Source: Bacteroidetes bacterium RIFCSPLOWO2_12_FULL_35_15 (GTDB lineage: Bacteria; Bacteroidota; Bacteroidia; 2-12-FULL-35-15). Taken from it: DNA of 64,000 nucleotides. A model generated the notes under the pieces. The model ran no database searches. It saw only the letters and a list, made by a program, of their open reading frames with translations, and was not told the origin of the DNA. A program made the translations under genes and the position numbers. This document shows positions 56,771 through 63,405 of this stretch, one piece after another. How positions within the stretch are numbered: the stretch's first letter is position 1; each line of letters opens with the position of its first letter. The stretch lies in contig MEPB01000037.1 of the NCBI GenBank assembly GCA_001769385.1, positions 12,241-76,240 on the forward strand, given 5' to 3'.

Positions 56771-56845
56771 TATTCTCTTTTTTAATGAAAGGCTCTGCAG
56801 TATTGCTTTAACTACACAAGTCTAAGGTGGGAGGAAAAAAATGAG

Positions 56846-56876
56846 AAAGGACGCTAGTTTTAGCGTCCTTTTTGTT
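56846..56876. terminator. Rho-independent terminator shared by infB (+) and the convergent minus-strand operon
   Basis: ggacgcta-gttt-tagcgtcc with aaa upstream and tttttg downstream. Confidence 0.7.
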
Positions 56877-56894: not shown

Positions 56895-57641
56895 TTACGA
56901 TCTAAGCCAAGTAAATACCATTTTTAAGTAGCTATTTAAGTAATCATCCAAGTTCTGTGATTTCAAGCCAAAATCAGCTAGCTTTCTGTAAGGACTGCCT
57001 GGGGAAGGAGTCGCAAAGCATTCTATTGAACCGCCATTACTACATTCAATAACCCTCAAAAAAGGTTTTTTTACTAAATCGGGATTGCCATTTATACTTT
57101 GAAGCAATGTGTTTTGAAGTTCAAATGATTTGCTTTCATTCATACTTAATGTTGGATGCTTATTAAAAAAGGCACTATTTAGAAACATTTCATTCATTAC
57201 ACCCTTAGAAGAACACAATATTTTAATCGTTTGTCCCTTTTGGGGGTATTTAAAAAAAAGATGATTGTATGTCCTTTCCGTTAAATGTTTGTCTAAAGCA
57301 GATTTATCCTTCCTGTTGCAGCTGAATATCATATCAGTAATACCAATTGAATTTTTTTCAAGGCTATTTTTTATTGAAGCGACATTTTCAAGAAAGATTT
57401 CTGAGTCGAAAAATGTTTGATACCAATACCAAAACCTATTATTTGAACTTCCATAATAGAATTGGATGTCGCCATTTTTGACTCTTTCAATGGTCTTAAG
57501 CGCATTTAATTTCCCATCATTAGAAAAGGTCAATGACCACGTAGGAAAGCTACCTAGAATTATTTTTGAATGGTTTAAGGTAGGACTATCGAAATCTATT
57601 CTCGGATGAAATTCCCGTAAATTATTTGAAGTATTTTTCAT
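56895..57641 (-). CDS. Hypothetical protein, last gene of the operon; weak resemblance to UDG-superfamily motifs
   Basis: Overlaps the upstream gene by 20 nt. N-terminal ILGSFPTWS resembles UDG motif A (GxxPG-type). C-terminal FATPSPGSPYRKL resembles motif B (HPSPLS / NPSGLS). Not confirmed. Confidence 0.5.
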   Translation of the reverse strand: MKNTSNNLREFHPRIDFDSPTLNHSKIILGSFPTWSLTFSNDGKLNALKTIERVKNGDIQFYYGSSNNRFWYWYQTFFDSEIFLENVASIKNSLEKNSIGITDMIFSCNRKDKSALDKHLTERTYNHLFFKYPQKGQTIKILCSSKGVMNEMFLNSAFFNKHPTLSMNESKSFELQNTLLQSINGNPDLVKKPFLRVIECSNGGSIECFATPSPGSPYRKLADFGLKSQNLDDYLNSYLKMVFTWLRS

Positions 57642-59400
57642 ACAGATCTTCTCCCATTTTTCTGTAGTGACTGGACTTATATCCTTTGAAAGGGAAATTG
57701 CTTACATCGGCAAATTTACTCTTATATAACTCAATGTCTCCATGTTTTTTATTTTCGATCAGAATCCTTAAGCAATTAATAACACCGTTGATAGTAGTGA
57801 CACTCAGAATAGTATTTCCAGCAACTCTATTCACTTTCCAATTTTCATTGTCAATATTGGCTTTCAAACCGATAAAAATGTTTCGAATTTGCTCGACACA
57901 AAAAGCTCGATATTCATCAAGAAGTTTATAGTCATCCTTCTTTTTTTTCAAGTCCTCCTTATTCTTTTTTACCCAAAAACTGAATAAGCTATCTACACCT
58001 TCAAATTTCACTAGTGGTTTTAGGCCAAAGCTTATTATAGTGGTGGTTTTCAATTTAGATTTTTCAAACCAATATTCTTCAAATAGACCACCTAATGGAC
58101 CGGACTCGTTCAATTTGCTAATTATATATTTTGAAATTGATGCCGTTGAAAACGGATTCATCATAAACTCAATTTCATACTTTAATTGTGGAGAAGCCCC
58201 AGACTGATTAGAGTTAATTTCCAAAAATAATTTAGCTTCAAATTTTATCCTTTTTTCTTCAGGTTCGTCTTTGGGATAAAGGATACCTGTAATCAATAAA
58301 TTCTGAATTCCCCTCAAGCCTGCAATAGATTTTTCATAAACATCATCTCCTTCATGATATGAATATGTCCTATGCTGGCCATCAATAATTCCTATAATAT
58401 TCGCTTTACTTGATATTTTAATGGTGGCTGGCTGTACCCTTGTAATACCTGGATTTGTGAAATTTCCTTTATTGTCTATTGACAATTCGCTACCTCCTTC
58501 ATCTAATATTCTAATCTCATTAATTGGTAAAGTTGTTATAATATTATTGATGAATACACGTTTTTCATCGTGCAAATATTTGCGCATACTTTTTATTTTT
58601 TGGGCAACAAACATCCGCTGATAAAATCCAATGTTATCCTTATTTCTCCAACCATCCCTTCTCAAGACGTAGGCTCGTTTAATTAAAGATTCAGCATCAA
58701 TATAAAATGAAACAATCTTATAGCCCTCTTTGAAAGAACTATGTTCTTCAGGCAATATATGCCCAGAGAATTCATCTACAGTACTCTTTGACGCTTGTTT
58801 TATATTGTCACCGATCTTCGAAAAGTCAATTCCAAGAAAATCAAAAAACTCATGTTTTGTGGACTTCTTTATGATTTTGGCGATGCTCACAAAATACTTT
58901 ACAACAGGGTAATCAAAATAATGAATGTTTGTTACCAAAACCTTATGTTCATTAACTACCTTGCGTTTTGAAGCATACAGAATTCGAATTTGCAATTGAT
59001 TTGCAGTGTATTTATTGCTGGTAACGCTTTCAAAGACTTGTTTTAAGGACTTAAACTTGTCCTCAGTCAAAAGGAATTTGAAAAAATTAGCGGGATTTAA
59101 ATTTATTTTATCGTAAATAATTTTCTTTTCCTTCAAATGGATTCCTGGATCACCAATGGTGTATTCAGTAAGTACAAAGATATTTTCATAATAGAAGATG
59201 TCATCGATTTCTGACTCACGGCTGTCATAAGTAAAATGTTTGCCATCAATCCCTGGGACTCTTGAAAATCCGATATTCGTCATCAAGGTTCTTATCTCTC
59301 TGGCTTGTTGATCTTGTTCTCTTTTTTGTTCCTTTTCTTGATCACTGAGTTTTTTCTTCCCCTTCTTTTTACCTTTCGCTTTTGTTTTTTTTGTTTTCAT
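57622..59400 (-). CDS. DGQHR-motif protein (DndB-like, ParB/Srx-fold superfamily) with Lys-rich N-terminal tail
   Basis: Contains ANIIGIIDGQHRTYSYHEG, the diagnostic DGQHR motif of the DndB family. N-terminus MKTKKTKAKGKKKGKKK. 592 aa. Confidence 0.7.
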   Translation of the reverse strand: MKTKKTKAKGKKKGKKKLSDQEKEQKREQDQQAREIRTLMTNIGFSRVPGIDGKHFTYDSRESEIDDIFYYENIFVLTEYTIGDPGIHLKEKKIIYDKINLNPANFFKFLLTEDKFKSLKQVFESVTSNKYTANQLQIRILYASKRKVVNEHKVLVTNIHYFDYPVVKYFVSIAKIIKKSTKHEFFDFLGIDFSKIGDNIKQASKSTVDEFSGHILPEEHSSFKEGYKIVSFYIDAESLIKRAYVLRRDGWRNKDNIGFYQRMFVAQKIKSMRKYLHDEKRVFINNIITTLPINEIRILDEGGSELSIDNKGNFTNPGITRVQPATIKISSKANIIGIIDGQHRTYSYHEGDDVYEKSIAGLRGIQNLLITGILYPKDEPEEKRIKFEAKLFLEINSNQSGASPQLKYEIEFMMNPFSTASISKYIISKLNESGPLGGLFEEYWFEKSKLKTTTIISFGLKPLVKFEGVDSLFSFWVKKNKEDLKKKKDDYKLLDEYRAFCVEQIRNIFIGLKANIDNENWKVNRVAGNTILSVTTINGVINCLRILIENKKHGDIELYKSKFADVSNFPFKGYKSSHYRKMGEDLYEKYFK

Positions 59401-59415
59401 CGAGAAAGAAAAATT

Positions 59416-60318
59416 TTATGGTTTTGCCTTATTTATATCAGTAATTGTACTCATTGCACTAACTACATCCTTGGCATAGATAATGTTTTCTTGTCCAGCC
59501 TTGCCTTCATAAGTAAAATTAAACAAGAGAGAAATAATTCGTTTCCTTCCTCCTACAGACAATTTCTCATCTCCGTAGACGTAGAACTCATGTTTGTTCA
59601 GAGTATAAAGGTTTTGAGAGGCCTTTTTTATTACAACCTTAGTAACACCTATAATAGACTTTTGCTCATATTTAAGCTTGTCAATAGTTCCAACACTTGC
59701 TTCAAATGAAGCTTTAAATTTAAGCGCAGCTGGATCATTCAAATTGCCTTCAATAACATCGTGTAATAGGGTTTTATATTCATTTAAATCTTCACCTTCT
59801 GCAACTGGCCAAGTGAGAAATAATGAAAAATTTCTGCTATATTTTTTTTGAAACTCAAAAACAGATTTGATTGTGGCATCGAAAGGATACTTTACACTGG
59901 CTTGCATTCTCCCATCAAAATCCAAATTTACTACATCGACAGGAAAGGTTTTATTTTTTCCACTAATTATGAAACTATAATTGGCTGCAATGTATGGGAT
60001 GAAGTCCGCTTCCACTTTGGCTTCGATGAGTTTTTCACTTAACTTTCTTTGAATTTTTGGATCTTTTTCGAAACATCTCACATTTCCTTTGATAATTCTA
60101 AAATTAGGGGTTCCATCAACGGATTTTGATTCTGCTTCTTCCCAATCAATCAGGCCTTCATCTTTGAACAGATGCAAATCTTGCATTGCCTCCGCTGGAA
60201 ATGTTAAAATACTGAAGTCACGTTCCTGGTCACCGAATATTTCTTTGGCGAAGGCAACCCACTTTTTTCTAATAAAGTCTTTTGGGCTGGAGTTATGTTT
60301 ATAGACGGCTTTAGGCAT
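59416..60318 (-). CDS. Hypothetical protein (300 aa) in the operon
   Basis: Tightly spaced between the GHKL ATPase and DGQHR genes. VDVVNLDFDG is faintly Rossmann/MTase-motif-I-like but unconvincing. Confidence 0.5.
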   Translation of the reverse strand: MPKAVYKHNSSPKDFIRKKWVAFAKEIFGDQERDFSILTFPAEAMQDLHLFKDEGLIDWEEAESKSVDGTPNFRIIKGNVRCFEKDPKIQRKLSEKLIEAKVEADFIPYIAANYSFIISGKNKTFPVDVVNLDFDGRMQASVKYPFDATIKSVFEFQKKYSRNFSLFLTWPVAEGEDLNEYKTLLHDVIEGNLNDPAALKFKASFEASVGTIDKLKYEQKSIIGVTKVVIKKASQNLYTLNKHEFYVYGDEKLSVGGRKRIISLLFNFTYEGKAGQENIIYAKDVVSAMSTITDINKAKP

Positions 60319-60324
60319 ACAGTA

Positions 60325-61974
60325 TTACTTGGCTTTCCATTCATCTATTTTTTTATAAAATAGCTCCTTTAGTTTTTTTGCATCACCTCGACTTTCATTG
60401 AAAGAATTTTCGAATATGATAAAAATGGTTTGCAAATATTCCCAATCACTTTTTTTAAACTTATTTTTAGCAACAGAATCAATCTCAATTACAGTCCCTT
60501 TATTTTTTGTCGTAACAATTTTAACAGGAGAAACTTCTTCTTCCTCCTTCTTTTTTTTACTTCCTTTTTGGGGAGTTGCAGGTTTAGGCTTTGATGAATA
60601 CGTAACCTTCTTAGCTTTTAAAATTCGCTTTGTGGCATCCTTCTTAACCTTATCCTTTTTGGCATCTCTAACATTTTTCCCGTCATCATATAATTTAAAA
60701 GCAATCTTAAAGATGTCCTCCTTCAAATATTCATGTAAAAAGTTCTGTAAAGCAATATAATCTGGGTGGGTTACCCTGAACGATTTTCGATCAATATTCA
60801 TTGCATCCTCAAGACCCTGTTCGATATATAATTCTCCTGAGATCCAGTTCCTAAATATCTGTTCCATATAAACAGGATATCTTAAAAAAGTGCCGTCAAA
60901 CCCAAATCGCTCTGCAATAGGAATGTTTTTTATTCTAATAGCTACACCATTTAGTTCACGAGGAATTAACAAACTGTTTTGTATGTAAAAATATCCCTTG
61001 AGAGCAATGAAATTATCACTATCGCCAATTCTGATTTTCTTTTTAAATGATGTATGCTCTGCTCTCTTATTTTTATCCTTGGGAAAGTAAATTGGCTTTT
61101 TAAGATACATGCCATCAAAATCCACCTTGAAGTTGAATTTTTTATGAAGAGAAACAATTTCATCAATTGTTTTATCCTTAACTCCTTCAATCGGCCCACC
61201 ATCAATATATTCAACGGGAATGTAAGATGCTAAATCAATAATGAACTGCATATACTCACTATCGTTTTCCCAAGAGTAGACGCTTTTGCTAGCGTGATGT
61301 GCAAGCAGATCTTTCATAGTTTTAAATGAAAGCTTAGCAAAGCCCTTGTTTTTTTCTTTTACCGCTTGAGCTTTATATGTCTCATCATTAAATATCTTTA
61401 AAACAGGCTCTTTTAATCCTACCAGCCTGATTGCTGTAAAGTGTTCGTTCTTATCTTCTTTTTCATTTACTAGGGTAAACTTCCCTTTCAAATAAGTATC
61501 TTCATCATCGCTTTTAGATGGCTTACTATCAAGAATTTCTTTGAAATCAATCCTTGCAGTAAACTTTATCGCTTCACCTTTCTTTGAAGATACAACTTCT
61601 AATACATCACATATCTCATTTACTGCAATAAAACCGATACCTATTTTTCCAATCAATGGTCTGCCAGCTGCAGAAAATTCACCTCTGTTTCGTTTGTTAG
61701 ATTTACTAATCCATGCAAAATTGTTATCAAAATCCTCTGCATTCATTCCATTTCCATCATCTAAGATCGTTATGCTATCTTCGATAGGTTTCATTCTAAT
61801 AATCACATTTTGCGCATCAGCATCAAATGAATTATTTACTAATTCTTTGATACAACTTGCAGGAGAGCTGTAAATACCAGAGCTCAGATCATTTATAATC
61901 TGAGAATGTACTTTAATCTCTCCAACTTGTTCGATGTCCAGAGCAAGAGTTATGTCATTATTTTTATCGGTCAT
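60325..61974 (-). CDS. GHKL-superfamily ATPase (MORC/MutL-like Bergerat fold) with Lys-rich C-terminal tail
   Basis: N-box IKELVNNSFDADAQNV, G1 ILDDGNGMN, G2 GKIGIGFIAV within the first 120 aa. C-terminal KKDKVKKDATKRILKAKK...KGSKKKKEEEE. Confidence 0.7.
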   Translation of the reverse strand: MTDKNNDITLALDIEQVGEIKVHSQIINDLSSGIYSSPASCIKELVNNSFDADAQNVIIRMKPIEDSITILDDGNGMNAEDFDNNFAWISKSNKRNRGEFSAAGRPLIGKIGIGFIAVNEICDVLEVVSSKKGEAIKFTARIDFKEILDSKPSKSDDEDTYLKGKFTLVNEKEDKNEHFTAIRLVGLKEPVLKIFNDETYKAQAVKEKNKGFAKLSFKTMKDLLAHHASKSVYSWENDSEYMQFIIDLASYIPVEYIDGGPIEGVKDKTIDEIVSLHKKFNFKVDFDGMYLKKPIYFPKDKNKRAEHTSFKKKIRIGDSDNFIALKGYFYIQNSLLIPRELNGVAIRIKNIPIAERFGFDGTFLRYPVYMEQIFRNWISGELYIEQGLEDAMNIDRKSFRVTHPDYIALQNFLHEYLKEDIFKIAFKLYDDGKNVRDAKKDKVKKDATKRILKAKKVTYSSKPKPATPQKGSKKKKEEEEVSPVKIVTTKNKGTVIEIDSVAKNKFKKSDWEYLQTIFIIFENSFNESRGDAKKLKELFYKKIDEWKAK

Positions 61975-61976
61975 TC

Positions 61977-62927
61977 TTAATATAAAAAGTGTTCTGGTTT
62001 TCTGGCAACAGCCATGTTAGCGGTAGGCACAAACACAGGTTTTCCCATTTCACGAATTTTTAAATTTCCTATTTTGTACTGACTCATTCTTTCTTCGCCA
62101 ACTCGAATGAATTTTATATACTTTTCTATTCCTAATGAATTTCTTTTGTTCTTGAGAGCCGCGATCATTGTTGACCCAACTCCCGCAAATGGATCCAAAA
62201 TCCAATCATTTTCTTTTGTTAAAGCAAGAACACACCTTTCTACAAGTTCTATTGGGTACTGGCAAGGATGAATTGTTTTTTCTTTATGATTAGCCTTAAC
62301 GTTAGGGATTTCCCAAATGTCCTTCTCCCATTCACTTCGTACAATTTTCCAAACATCAGAAGGATTCTTTCCTTTAGGATTACCCGAAATCTGCCCTTTC
62401 TTTTCACCTTTGTAATATGTTTTTCCAGGATACTTTGCTGGCACTCTAACATCATCAAGATTAAATGTATATTTATCCGATTTCGAATACCACATTATAG
62501 TTTCATATCGCCCAGAAAATCTTTGCGAAGCATGAAGTCCATGCTCAAAATGCCAAATAATTCGATTGCGAAGAATCAGTTTTTCTTTAGCGAAAATATC
62601 GTGATAAAAAATATCCAAAGGCACAACCTCTTTTGTTTTCGGATTTATATAATTACCAACCTGCCAGCAGATGCTGCCTTTTTTATCAAGTAGAGTAACT
62701 AATTTTTTAATAATTGATTCAATTTCCAGTTTATAATTTTCTAAGGAATTAGACTTTTCATATTCCTTATCCATATTATAAGGCGGGGAAGTCATAATAA
62801 GTTTAAACTTCTTTTTCTGCGCAATCAATTTATCCAAATTTTTATCCGCTACTCCATGAATATAATCTGCAGCAACAACCCTGACCCTTCTTTTAGCCTT
62901 TGCTTGTTTTTTTACTGCCTTCGCCAT
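61977..62927 (-). CDS. Beta-class amino DNA methyltransferase (N4-cytosine or N6-adenine)
   Basis: Motif IV IMTSPPYN precedes motif I ILDPFAGVGST (beta-class order), plus HPCQYP motif. Lys/Arg-rich N-terminus MAKAVKKQAKAKRR. Confidence 0.8.
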   Translation of the reverse strand: MAKAVKKQAKAKRRVRVVAADYIHGVADKNLDKLIAQKKKFKLIMTSPPYNMDKEYEKSNSLENYKLEIESIIKKLVTLLDKKGSICWQVGNYINPKTKEVVPLDIFYHDIFAKEKLILRNRIIWHFEHGLHASQRFSGRYETIMWYSKSDKYTFNLDDVRVPAKYPGKTYYKGEKKGQISGNPKGKNPSDVWKIVRSEWEKDIWEIPNVKANHKEKTIHPCQYPIELVERCVLALTKENDWILDPFAGVGSTMIAALKNKRNSLGIEKYIKFIRVGEERMSQYKIGNLKIREMGKPVFVPTANMAVARKPEHFLY

Positions 62928-63064: not shown

Positions 63065-63325
63065 CTAGTTCACGTGTAAGGTATCTAGGAAACTCCCTTT
63101 TAACTTTAACCCGAATTCCTTTATGAGATCACCCAAGTTCATTTCAAATTCTTCAGCCAGTTTATAACACCAAAACAATGTTGGACTAATCTCCCCACGC
63201 TCAAGACGAGATATGTTTTGGTAATTATTCCCGACTTTAGAAGCCAGATGTGCCTGTGGCCAATCCTTTTCAAGTCTCTTTTTTGCACAGTTAAGGCAGG
63301 AAAGGAATGCAAGGCCTTTTTGTTT
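63065..63325 (-). CDS. XRE-family HTH reading frame (controller-like), with no in-frame ATG/GTG/TTG start; possibly frameshifted or degraded
   Basis: Minus-strand frame reads CAKKRLEKDWPQAHLASKVGNNYQNISRLERGEISPTLFWCYKLAEEFEMNLGDLIKEFG, a textbook XRE helix-turn-helix layout. The ORF-track ATG at 63369 is in a different frame. Confidence 0.4.
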   Translation of the reverse strand, partial: KQKGLAFLSCLNCAKKRLEKDWPQAHLASKVGNNYQNISRLERGEISPTLFWCYKLAEEFEMNLGDLIKEFGLKLKGSFLDTLHVN

Positions 63326-63405
63326 TTACATATATTTAAACAAATGATTAAATATATTGTTTTAATCAAAATATAAATTTAATTTTGTTATGCTATTTTG
63401 TAATC

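Follow-up and report, generated by a model that had tools for sequence, protein, structure and literature searches.

Proteins with a DGQHR domain are so far known only as poorly understood accessories of unusual DNA-modification systems: phosphorothioation, where the protein is DndB, and the insertion of 7-deazaguanine, where it is DpdB. Both of these characterised stand-alone DGQHR proteins work with modification enzymes, DndB within the dnd operon and DpdB for DpdA (PMC10164549, PMC4507180). DpdB is a DNA-stimulated ATPase, and DGQQR, the equivalent motif, is needed for the NTPase activity of SspE, whose ParB-type domain belongs to a group of modification sensors (PMC10164549); binding of both ATP and GTP has been reported for a DndB-like protein (10.1101/2025.10.10.680097). 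The published signatures of the DGQHR domain are a QR pair, DGQHR itself, and FxxxN (PMC4619093). The closest remark in the literature to the protein described here is that COG1479/DGQHR ParB domains occur fused to HNH, PD-(D/E)xK, or HEPN nucleases (PMC3632139). In the literature on DGQHR, DndB-like, and DpdB/ParB proteins and on GHKL/MORC proteins in restriction–modification (R-M), no module of a methylase with a DGQHR nuclease was found described, nor was a characterised member of the present family found.

The window studied here, that is, the whole analysed stretch of 64,000 nucleotides, comes from Bacteroidetes bacterium RIFCSPLOWO2_12_FULL_35_15. At positions 57622..59400 of the minus strand it carries an intact ORF for a predicted NTP-gated restriction nuclease, a 592-aa protein that is 100% identical to a hypothetical protein deposited for this bacterium. 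Its 944 homologs are mostly ~580–610 aa long and conserved over their full length. From the N terminus, the protein consists of a Lys-rich tail, a long helix, a PD-(D/E)xK-like domain, a DGQHR ParB/Srx-like domain, and a helical C-terminal domain; the AlphaFold2 model of the whole has a pLDDT of 84 and a pTM of 0.80. Sequence searches of all PDB chains with the full protein and with the family profile returned nothing meaningful. Given this three-domain architecture and the methylase gene that almost always lies just upstream in the family, the DGQHR protein most likely provides the cutting activity of a novel type of R-M system, as opposed to being a DndB regulator.

For the central domain (residues ~225–440; positions 58081..58728, minus strand), which is predicted to bind NTP, the NCBIfam model TIGR03187 (DGQHR domain) matched residues 231–438 with E = 1.1e-15 (58.1 bits; curated cut-off, 58.85), and the same model was found in 54 of 54 aligned homologs (best E = 5e-22). 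Weaker matches were obtained with the DpdB model NF041060 (E = 2e-6; 26.8 bits, cut-off 300), with DGQHR_dnd_1 (E = 5e-5; 22.5 bits, cut-off 450), and with Pfam DndB, PF14072 (E = 7e-4; 19.2 bits, cut-off 29.1), and precomputed PF14072 matches exist for many homologs. PADLOC, whose restriction-enzyme models derive from REBASE, gave a weak DpdB match only (E = 2e-7, confined to residues 225–347) and no restriction-enzyme or defence-system model. The DGQHR pentapeptide itself (D340–R344; positions 58369–58383, minus strand) lies inside the conserved TIGR03187 domain and is thus not a chance pentapeptide. All three signatures, Q261-R262, D340–R344, and F392-L-E-I-N396, are each at least 95% conserved across 78 homologs with identities down to 33%. 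As for structure, Foldseek against BFVD showed that the model resembles DndB-like, Noc/ParB, GmrSD_N, and Spo0J proteins. The 592-aa protein therefore carries a genuine DGQHR domain of the DndB/DpdB type within the ParB/Srx superfamily, and the two checks proposed in the preliminary description, structural resemblance to the ParB/DndB fold and alignment of the motif with homologs, both came out in its favour.

The label "DndB-like" that was first given to the protein is, judged by family models and motifs, apt at the level of the shared domain only, since the protein falls outside the DndB, DpdB, and GmrSD/SspE families. Phosphorothioation partners had been described as missing, and this was borne out. 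No dnd gene was found in the flanks or among the 10 ORFs scanned from the 26 of at least 200 aa in window positions 1–40000; where these ten large ORFs had matches, the matches were to housekeeping or other non-dnd genes, and two had no match at 1e-10. A true DndB with its dnd partners elsewhere in the window was rejected on this result. Similarly, there were no dnd genes among the called and Pfam-labelled genes at the sampled homologous loci.

N-terminal to the DGQHR domain, residues ~45–200 (positions 58801..59268, minus strand) form a predicted PD-(D/E)xK, or restriction-endonuclease-fold, domain of ~160 residues, as judged by Foldseek on the AlphaFold model. When residues 18–224 were modelled alone (pLDDT 84.7), the best 50 PDB matches listed were all PD-(D/E)xK nucleases. 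The top match, R2 RLE, had E = 1.1e-3 and a probability of 0.99 at a TM score of about 0.35, which is weak in absolute terms; Bax1, the small subunit of R.BspD6I, Cdn1, Can2, Nt.BspD6I, BstEII, and the cap-snatching endonucleases of arenaviruses and bunyaviruses were also among the matches listed. A putative active-site cluster (E64, D66, D67, N73, E79, T81, H88, and K92; positions 59125–59211, minus strand) could be placed by sequence and conservation, and of these residues D66, N73, E79, T81, H88, and K92 show no variation among 78 sequences, the most distant of them at 33% identity. The strand motif D66...E79-x-T81 is non-canonical, reading E-x-T and not (D/E)-x-K, with H88 and K92, both invariant, located on the helix that follows; for this reason the catalytic competence of the domain is an assumption. 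In R2 RLE the catalytic Lys is likewise downstream of the acidic strand. Profile searches with the N-terminal domain were less informative: against all PDB chains no nuclease family was linked, and a Pfam scan of 23 N-domain sequences at E values up to 10 gave scattered noise and no nuclease family. Against 1.84 billion representatives, the profile produced 316 matches, all with the methylase-linked three-domain protein's own architecture, and thus no tie to other families.

The protein had earlier been proposed as the DNA-sensing or nicking effector of its system. A DNA-attacking effector of a methylase-linked system remains the most plausible role, with the difference that cutting would more likely be done by the N-terminal PD-(D/E)xK-like domain, which had gone unnoticed, than by ParB-type nicking. 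The Lys-rich N-terminal tail was correctly described. Read from the sequence, it spans residues 1–17 (positions 59350..59400, minus strand) with 11 Lys; it is predicted to be disordered, with a pLDDT below 50 over residues 1–12, and the family consensus N terminus is likewise Lys-rich. At the other end, residues ~441–592 (positions 57625..58080, minus strand) make up an α-helical domain by the secondary structure of the model, where pLDDT is mostly above 90, with W476, Y497, W521, N538, R545, and Y579 conserved among 78 homologs. Inspection of residues 441–592 revealed no EHxxP or [DE]HxxP motif of His-Me nucleases. A HEPN-type motif (Rx4-6H) was considered and rejected, R545 being conserved but without a conserved His at the right spacing.

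Of the five genes in the window operon, the first (positions 61977..62927, minus strand) encodes a 316-aa β-class DNA methylase, identified by Pfam N6_N4_Mtase (E = 7e-51) and PADLOC MTase_II (E = 1e-63). Its motifs, TSPPY as motif IV and ILDPFAGVGS as motif I, lead us to predict an N4-cytosine methylase, and TSPPY (SPPY) is present in 68 of the 70 methylases that adjoin family members. Methylases 73–81% identical adjoin DGQHR genes at loci L005 and L008 and a GHKL gene at L091. Across the family, about 75 of 79 informative loci have an N6_N4 methylase gene directly upstream of, and co-oriented with, the DGQHR gene, with gaps mostly of −30 to +20 bp and reading frames that often overlap. This linked pair is found in Bacteroidota, Alpha-, Gamma-, and Deltaproteobacteria, Acidobacteriota, Calditrichota, Bacilli, Fusobacteria, and Parcubacteria, in a Thermoplasmatota archaeon, on rhizobial plasmids, and in the integrase–repressor region of the temperate Akkermansia phage Chantilly. 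Overall, the tightly conserved family of ~590-aa DGQHR proteins covers at least 285 species in many phyla, including one archaeon, the Akkermansia phage, and the rhizobial plasmids. AbiE, Type I R-M, GmrSD, and nSTAND–Mrr genes and integrative elements are among the defence-island neighbours at homologous loci.

Taken together, the observed domain architecture, conservation, and gene linkage suggest that the pair is probably a two-gene R-M unit, in which a ParB/DndB-like NTPase domain would control a predicted nuclease whose partner is a β-class methylase with predicted N4-cytosine specificity. The host's own DNA would carry the mark of the methylase. Where the mark is missing, the central DGQHR domain would bind and hydrolyse a nucleoside triphosphate and, by analogy to ParB, DpdB, DndB, and SspE, might thereby form a dimer, clamp onto the DNA, or move along it. 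This NTP-dependent step would in turn license cutting by the N-terminal domain through D66, E79-x-T81, H88, and K92, and the Lys-rich tail may add non-specific DNA affinity. We would go further only tentatively, as what follows is possible but on balance doubtful: that a ParB/DndB-type NTP-gated clamp or switch represents the first R-M class to replace the helicase-like motors of Types I and III, whereby NTP-driven dimerisation or sliding on DNA lacking m4C would join two PD-(D/E)xK domains to cut.

The DGQHR protein could instead be a helper on the modification side. Acting as a transcriptional repressor or as a DNA clamp that depends on NTP, it would load or target the neighbouring methylase or regulate it, and its PD-(D/E)xK-like domain would be a catalytically dead DNA-binding module. 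The precedent of DndB and DpdB, which act on the modification side and not the restriction side, would by analogy argue against a restriction role; the missing canonical Lys of the N-terminal strand motif points the same way, as does the frequent fusion of phage ParB-fold domains to N6_N4 methylases (10.1101/2025.10.10.680097). At L072, in one complete genome, the methylase is frameshifted while the adjoining DGQHR gene is intact, a pattern unexpected for a lethal nuclease unless it reflects a sequencing error or another methylase provides protection. We nevertheless regard a helper role as unlikely. Six polar residues invariant in 78 sequences from many phyla are hard to explain in a dead domain, and the same methylase clades work without a DGQHR protein at L091, L092, and L094. 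Moreover, two methylase subclasses that share only about 25% identity have replaced each other at least three times on the nuclease tree; such interchangeability argues against a specific loader interface and is consistent with components that act independently, as they do in Type II systems. Decay of the DGQHR gene tells a similar story. At L096/L097, L026, and L052 it is frameshifted or stopped beside an intact methylase, and homolog clusters include numerous truncated copies that lie on long contigs; repeated inactivation with the methylase kept fits a toxic gene, as the two-gene R-M reading would have it.

The window operon is larger than the pair. Its five genes are tightly packed and co-oriented, flanked immediately by rimP–nusA–infB and by a TetR-like gene, with a bidirectional terminator-like hairpin (positions 56844..56873; 13-bp stem, T-run on both strands) between infB and the operon end. 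The core pair is split by two genes, the first of which (positions 60325..61974, minus strand) encodes a 549-aa GHKL ATPase of the MORC/MutL type (HATPase_c_3, E = 5.5e-19). Over residues 20–191, roughly the N-terminal 190, it is similar to the GHKL domain found in restriction enzymes of the BbrUII/HgiDII family (E = 1e-25), and we read it as a MORC/paraMORC-style ATPase. The second (positions 59416..60318, minus strand) encodes a 300-aa distant relative of the PP_RS20740 family (NF047698, E = 4e-7; found in 18 of 19 family members, best E = 1e-10), for which only 22 homologs were found and which is always paired with, and placed after, the GHKL gene. Last in the operon is a gene (positions 56895..57641, minus strand) whose first 20 bp are shared with the 3' end of the DGQHR gene. 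Its 248-aa product is a divergent UDG-superfamily-like protein (TIGR04274 hypoxanthine-DNA glycosylase, E = 1e-5); the family profile matches PDB 2l3f at E = 0.04, and Pfam UDG is weakly detected in 6 of 35 members. Those of its 88 homologs that were named or sampled are all from Bacteroidota, and homologs adjoin SPPY methylases that have different restriction partners; the protein is possibly a Vsr-like repair glycosylase.

The neighbouring methylase and GHKL ATPase were both present as first described. The methylase alone is the constant partner, however, as the GHKL ATPase accompanies the DGQHR protein in only about 3 of 80 genome loci, and this count led us to reject it as an obligatory partner. 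Orthologs of the ATPase were found at L006/L018, L009, L048, L091, L092, and L093, and it occurs elsewhere with the same methylase clades where the DGQHR protein is absent. The 300-aa and 248-aa proteins likewise occur with these clades without a DGQHR protein, and all three are read as lineage-restricted accessory modules of methylase-centred defence operons and not as core components.

These accessory genes bear on a further possibility, namely that the DGQHR protein is a sensor or clamp that recognises unmethylated or foreign DNA and, without cutting, recruits or activates other effectors, here the UDG-like protein or the pair of GHKL ATPase and 300-aa protein; this corresponds to the DNA-sensing role first suggested. 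The compact arrangement of the window operon and the recurrence of the same five genes in permuted order at L009, L018, and L048 are in keeping with this, as are the SspE-type sensors noted above. We consider it quite unlikely, given that in about 70 of the 80 genome loci, which were screened for the five window proteins only, no gene is conserved beyond those for the methylase and the DGQHR protein. It follows that the DGQHR protein must itself carry the effector function, and it does possess a nuclease-fold domain of its own. It is very unlikely that the protein is a nuclease of the GmrSD/SspE/AIPR kind that acts on its own, in modification-dependent (Type IV) restriction or in abortive infection, and merely clusters with methylases in defence islands. 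In favour of this, the fusion of a ParB-like domain to a nuclease is a typical Type IV arrangement (PMC4619093, PMC3632139), the model resembles GmrSD_N proteins, and GmrSD genes are close by at L006 and L092, but the adjacency of one methylase family in so many loci across phyla, often with overlapping frames, goes far beyond island clustering, and the protein has no DUF1524/HNH domain, EHxxP motif, or Pfam GmrSD_N match.

If the two-gene R-M reading is correct, the DGQHR domain is here built into the apparent nuclease of a simple, widespread, and mobile methylase–nuclease pair, which would bring a new enzyme architecture to the R-M field and might yield a practically useful endonuclease that is NTP-dependent and sensitive to m4C. 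ParB-fold NTPases would then serve modification-dependent and modification-blocked restriction alike, and the pair would offer a tractable minimal two-gene model for how DGQHR domains, including those of DndB and DpdB, read the modification state of DNA. Several hundred proteins annotated as "DGQHR domain-containing" or "hypothetical," including those of gut Bacteroides mobile elements and the Akkermansia prophage, would be re-annotated.

Compared with known systems, the DGQHR protein shares with DndB and DpdB its detection by TIGR03187, NF041060, and PF14072. Unlike them, it scores far below the DndB and DpdB family cut-offs, has no dndACDE, dpdA, or TGT-like neighbours, and carries an extra N-terminal nuclease-fold region of ~220 residues, its 592 aa comparing with ~350–380 aa in two domains for DndB; its partner is a methylase, and it is predicted to act in restriction instead of in modification or regulation. 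GmrSD, SspE, and BrxU likewise combine a ParB-superfamily NTPase with a nuclease domain in one defence polypeptide, and GmrSD_N resembles the model. Those Type IV enzymes are built from a DUF262 ParB-like NTPase and a C-terminal DUF1524 His-Me (HNH-like) nuclease, whereas the predicted nuclease here is N-terminal and of the PD-(D/E)xK fold, the motif is DGQHR and not DGQQR, EHxxP is absent, and neither Pfam GmrSD_N nor GmrSD_C matched the 592-aa protein. Coupling to a cognate methylase leads us to predict that the DGQHR enzyme is blocked by modification, which would make it the mirror image of these modification-dependent enzymes.

The likeness to MORC/paraMORC GHKL R-M operons (Iyer, Abhiman, and Aravind 2008, PMC2292703) and to the R.HgiDII/BbrUII enzymes (PMC2441816) concerns the accessory genes and not the DGQHR protein: the window GHKL ATPase sits in a cytosine-methylase operon, related loci have SNF2 helicases, and a putative repair enzyme is found where Vsr often sits, although the GHKL protein matches HgiDII-type enzymes over their ATPase domain only. 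In Type III R-M (Mod and Res), as here, the gene for a PF01555 β-class methylase is directly upstream of, and often overlaps, that for a protein with an NTPase and a PD-(D/E)xK domain. The NTPase of the DGQHR protein is instead of the ParB/Srx fold without SF2 helicase motifs, profile scans of the 592-aa protein gave no match to ResIII, DEAD, or Helicase_C, and the two interchangeable methylase subclasses argue against an obligate Mod–Res complex. In comparison with Type II systems, the ~590-aa protein differs by its conserved ParB/DndB-type NTP-binding module, its predicted NTP dependence, which is unusual for Type II enzymes, and the lack of a match to REBASE-derived models; it resembles them in forming a two-gene cassette of methylase and nuclease that is horizontally mobile in defence islands, plasmids, and prophage, and in which methylases are exchanged and nuclease genes decay.

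The DGQHR protein is encoded by an intact 592-amino-acid ORF (57622–59400, minus strand), and a hypothetical protein deposited for Bacteroidetes bacterium RIFCSPLOWO2_12_FULL_35_15 has the identical sequence. The DGQHR pentapeptide picked out in the preliminary description occupies residues 340–344 (58369–58383, minus strand) and lies within a bona fide DGQHR domain. The NCBIfam model TIGR03187 matched residues 231–438 with E = 1.1e-15 and a score of 58.1 bits, the cut-off being 58.85. Weaker matches came from the models for DpdB, DGQHR_dnd_1 and Pfam DndB, and TIGR03187 was also matched by 54 of 54 aligned homologs. The three published signatures of the domain, a QR pair, DGQHR and FxxxN (PMC4619093), were found at Q261-R262, D340-R344 and F392..N396, each at least 95% conserved across 78 sequences ranging down to 33% identity. 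The protein belongs to the superfamily of DGQHR domains. Other features of the preliminary description also held: the Lys-rich N-terminal tail (11 lysines in 17 residues, predicted to be disordered), and the methylase and GHKL ATPase neighbours, which belong to the same operon. A scan of ten large ORFs elsewhere in the window turned up no dnd gene, and the flanking genes are housekeeping genes.

An AlphaFold2 model of the protein was confident (pLDDT 84, pTM 0.80) and comprised, after an N-terminal tail and a long helix, an alpha/beta domain (residues ~45–200), the DGQHR domain (residues ~225–440) and a helical C-terminal domain. When the whole model was compared with the PDB using Foldseek, nearly all matches were PD-(D/E)xK nucleases, with weak E-values; residues 18–224 were therefore modelled alone (pLDDT 84.7). 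The 50 best matches listed for this model in the PDB were all PD-(D/E)xK nucleases, among them the R2 retrotransposon restriction-like endonuclease (E = 1.1e-3, prob 0.99), Bax1, the R.BspD6I small subunit, Nt.BspD6I, Cdn1, Can2, VC1899, BstEII and the cap-snatching endonucleases of arenaviruses and bunyaviruses. Within this domain, D66, N73, E79, T81, H88 and K92 are invariant in 78 of 78 sequences, position 64 is always Glu or Asp, and conservation of D67 is 96%. In the model, D66 is followed by one strand of a hairpin, the next strand contains E79-x-T81, and the helix after it bears H88 and K92; D66/E79-x-T81/H88/K92 would plausibly form a non-canonical PD-(D/E)xK site whose lysine has moved to the helix. 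No sequence profile recognised the N-terminal domain, and its own profile, searched against 1.84 billion representatives, returned 316 matches, all to the N terminus of the same ~590-aa architecture. Against a viral structure library, the remainder of the model matched a DndB-annotated protein (prob 0.97), a Noc/ParB-like protein (prob 0.99), and GmrSD_N and Spo0J/ParB proteins. Neither an EHxxP/His-Me motif nor a conserved HEPN motif was found in the C-terminal domain.

Members of the family are ~580–610 aa long and conserved over their full length. A word-indexed database gave 944 matches to the window's protein, the best 120 at 53–74% identity, and relatives are encoded in at least 285 of 185,579 species genomes. 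These genomes are spread over many bacterial phyla and include one from Parcubacteria and one from a Thermoplasmatota archaeon. Further copies are present on two rhizobial plasmids and in the temperate Akkermansia phage Chantilly (ON453895.1). In this gut phage (locus L088, 1519–4625), a homolog of 33% identity is accompanied by an SPPY methylase of the ~420-aa class; the two genes are convergent and lie between integrase and repressor, a typical position for lysogenic conversion or defence.

An N6_N4 DNA methylase gene was seen directly upstream of the DGQHR gene in Pseudomonas, Bacteroides, a deltaproteobacterium, Mucilaginibacter and a metagenomic Bacteroidota contig. ORFs were then called in 80 genome loci and compared with the five operon proteins of the window: of 79 informative loci, about 75 have a same-strand methylase gene immediately upstream, and the two genes mostly overlap or lie no more than ~20 bp apart. 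The methylases fall into two subclasses of ~310 aa (the window's type) and ~420 aa, with a mutual identity of only ~25%. On a neighbour-joining tree of DGQHR proteins these subclasses were exchanged at least three times, the window's clade being a 310-aa island within a 420-aa clade. For exocyclic amino-methylases, SPPY rather than DPPY at motif IV predicts N4-cytosine methylation; because TSPPY was present in 68 of 70 parsed partners, these are predicted from sequence to be N4-cytosine methylases. In another locus (L094, 1499–2897), a methylase 60% identical to the window's is followed directly by a 154-aa BglII/BamHI-family endonuclease, which may hint at the recognition sequence of that methylase clade. 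DGQHR genes reside in defence islands or on mobile elements, near AbiE, Type I R-M, GmrSD, nSTAND-Mrr, integrases and RteC.

The best-supported reading, and one we consider probable, is that methylase and DGQHR protein form a two-gene restriction-modification unit whose nuclease is under ParB/DndB-type NTP control. The methylase would protect host DNA, the DGQHR protein would cut unmodified DNA through its PD-(D/E)xK domain, and the ParB/DndB-type domain would control cutting through NTP binding and hydrolysis. We infer this control step from relatives: DpdB, a ParB-fold ATPase, is a dimer whose activity DpdA-DNA stimulates, the equivalent DGQQR motif is needed for SspE NTPase activity, and ParB clamps and slides on DNA using CTP (PMC10164549), while ATP and GTP are bound by a DndB-like protein (10.1101/2025.10.10.680097). 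A more specific form, a restriction enzyme driven by a ParB clamp, is tentative and on balance doubtful.

Decay of the DGQHR gene is evident. In three lineages the DGQHR gene is inactivated beside an intact methylase: by a frameshift inside the nuclease domain in two samples (L096/L097, 3238–5011; 99% identical to an intact copy), and by in-frame stops in L026 (9959–11743) and L052 (9889–11629). Both genes are broken in L065, and protein clusters of the family hold many truncated copies on long contigs. The counter-example is a complete Sphingomonas genome (L072, 8962–9932), where the methylase is apparently frameshifted and the adjoining DGQHR gene intact; together with the modest fold-match statistics and the E-x-T motif, it is among the main weaknesses of the restriction-modification reading. 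That the protein is instead a helper or regulator on the modification side seems unlikely, and a sensor or clamp handing over to other effectors is about equally unlikely; an independent Type IV or abortive-infection nuclease is very improbable.

The window operon comprises five co-oriented, tightly packed genes, all on the minus strand: the methylase (61977–62927), a GHKL ATPase of HATPase_c_3 type (60325–61974), a 300-aa distant relative of the PP_RS20740 family (59416–60318), the DGQHR gene and a 248-aa divergent UDG-superfamily candidate (56895–57641). On one side it is bounded by a bidirectional terminator-like hairpin with a perfect 13-bp stem (56844–56873), common to the defence operon and the convergent infB; at the other boundary, an intergenic region is followed by a TetR-like gene. 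Just upstream of the operon lies an XRE-type helix-turn-helix reading frame (…LASKVGNNYQNISRLERGEISPTL…; 63065–63330, minus strand), whose ATG is followed at once by TAA, with no other start codon ahead of the HTH. This frame may be the remnant of a gene for a controller (C) protein.

The N-terminal ~190 residues of the GHKL ATPase resemble the ATPase domain of BbrUII/HgiDII-family restriction enzymes, R.HgiDII being known to carry an N-terminal GHKL domain (PMC2441816). The ATPase and its 300-aa neighbour were invariably found together as a pair; Pfam PF28273 appears in the precomputed annotation of two homologs of the latter (P0132, P0134). The pair joins the methylase–DGQHR core in only a few Bacteroidota, in permuted orders: GHKL-300-methylase-DGQHR-248 in two Mucilaginibacter species (L009, L018), 248 | methylase-DGQHR-GHKL-300 in L048, and methylase-GHKL-300-DGQHR-248 in the window. 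It also accompanies the same two methylase clades without the DGQHR nuclease, with a methylase 81% identical to the window's followed by GHKL-293 (L091, 5421–8882), with the 420-aa methylase class and a 300-aa gene cut by an IS element (L092, 4825–8753), and in Winogradskyella with a short 343-aa DndB-like protein and a 430-aa protein (L093, 535–6857). The pair may be a separate restriction-like module using the same methylase.

The 248-aa protein matched TIGR04274 (E = 1e-5), and its family profile matched PDB 2l3f (E = 0.04), labelled 'uncharacterized', which we take to be a Methanosarcina UDG-like protein; Pfam UDG was matched weakly by 6 of 35 family members. All named or sampled members among its 88 homologs are from Bacteroidota, and in the loci sampled, L093 (7001–7723), L094 (7001–7729) and L095 (7001–7729) among them, they adjoin SPPY methylases. 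Restriction partners nearby vary, being a DGQHR nuclease, a BglII/BamHI-fold nuclease with an SNF2 helicase and a NOV_C protein (as in Fluviicola), or uncharacterised genes. The 248-aa protein might serve m4C systems as a Vsr-like repair glycosylase, or act as a glycosylase effector; by analogy with MORC/paraMORC operons, and speculatively, it may repair deamination damage at methylated cytosines. A second accessory set, of a ~420-aa protein, an SNF2-family helicase (~590–625 aa) and a NOV_C-like ~300-aa protein, was seen beside the 310-aa methylase class, adjoining a DGQHR nuclease in L054 (11781–17056) and, fragmented, in L044 (5965–9860), and a BglII/BamHI-fold nuclease in L094 (1499–7032).

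No definition or characterisation of the DGQHR-nuclease family was found in the literature, PADLOC models or NCBIfam names; databases label its members 'DGQHR domain-containing' or 'hypothetical'. Makarova et al. made the general observation that fusions of COG1479/DGQHR ParB domains with PD-(D/E)xK nucleases can occur, as can links of these domains to R-M systems (PMC3632139). The protein differs from DndB in its lack of dnd linkage, a score far below the cut-off and an extra domain; from DpdB in scoring 27 bits against 300 and lacking DpdA; and from Type III Res in lacking helicase motifs. The window's modular accessory genes fit the MORC/paraMORC R-M operons that Iyer et al. described, in which GHKL ATPases accompany cytosine methylases, SNF2 helicases and Vsr repair nucleases (PMC2292703). 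GmrSD/SspE differ in carrying DUF1524 or EHxxP, both absent here, yet are an architectural mirror, each combining a ParB-like NTPase with a nuclease, the DGQHR protein being paired with a protective methylase. The action proposed for the DGQHR protein most resembles that of a restriction nuclease in the style of Type II or Type III.
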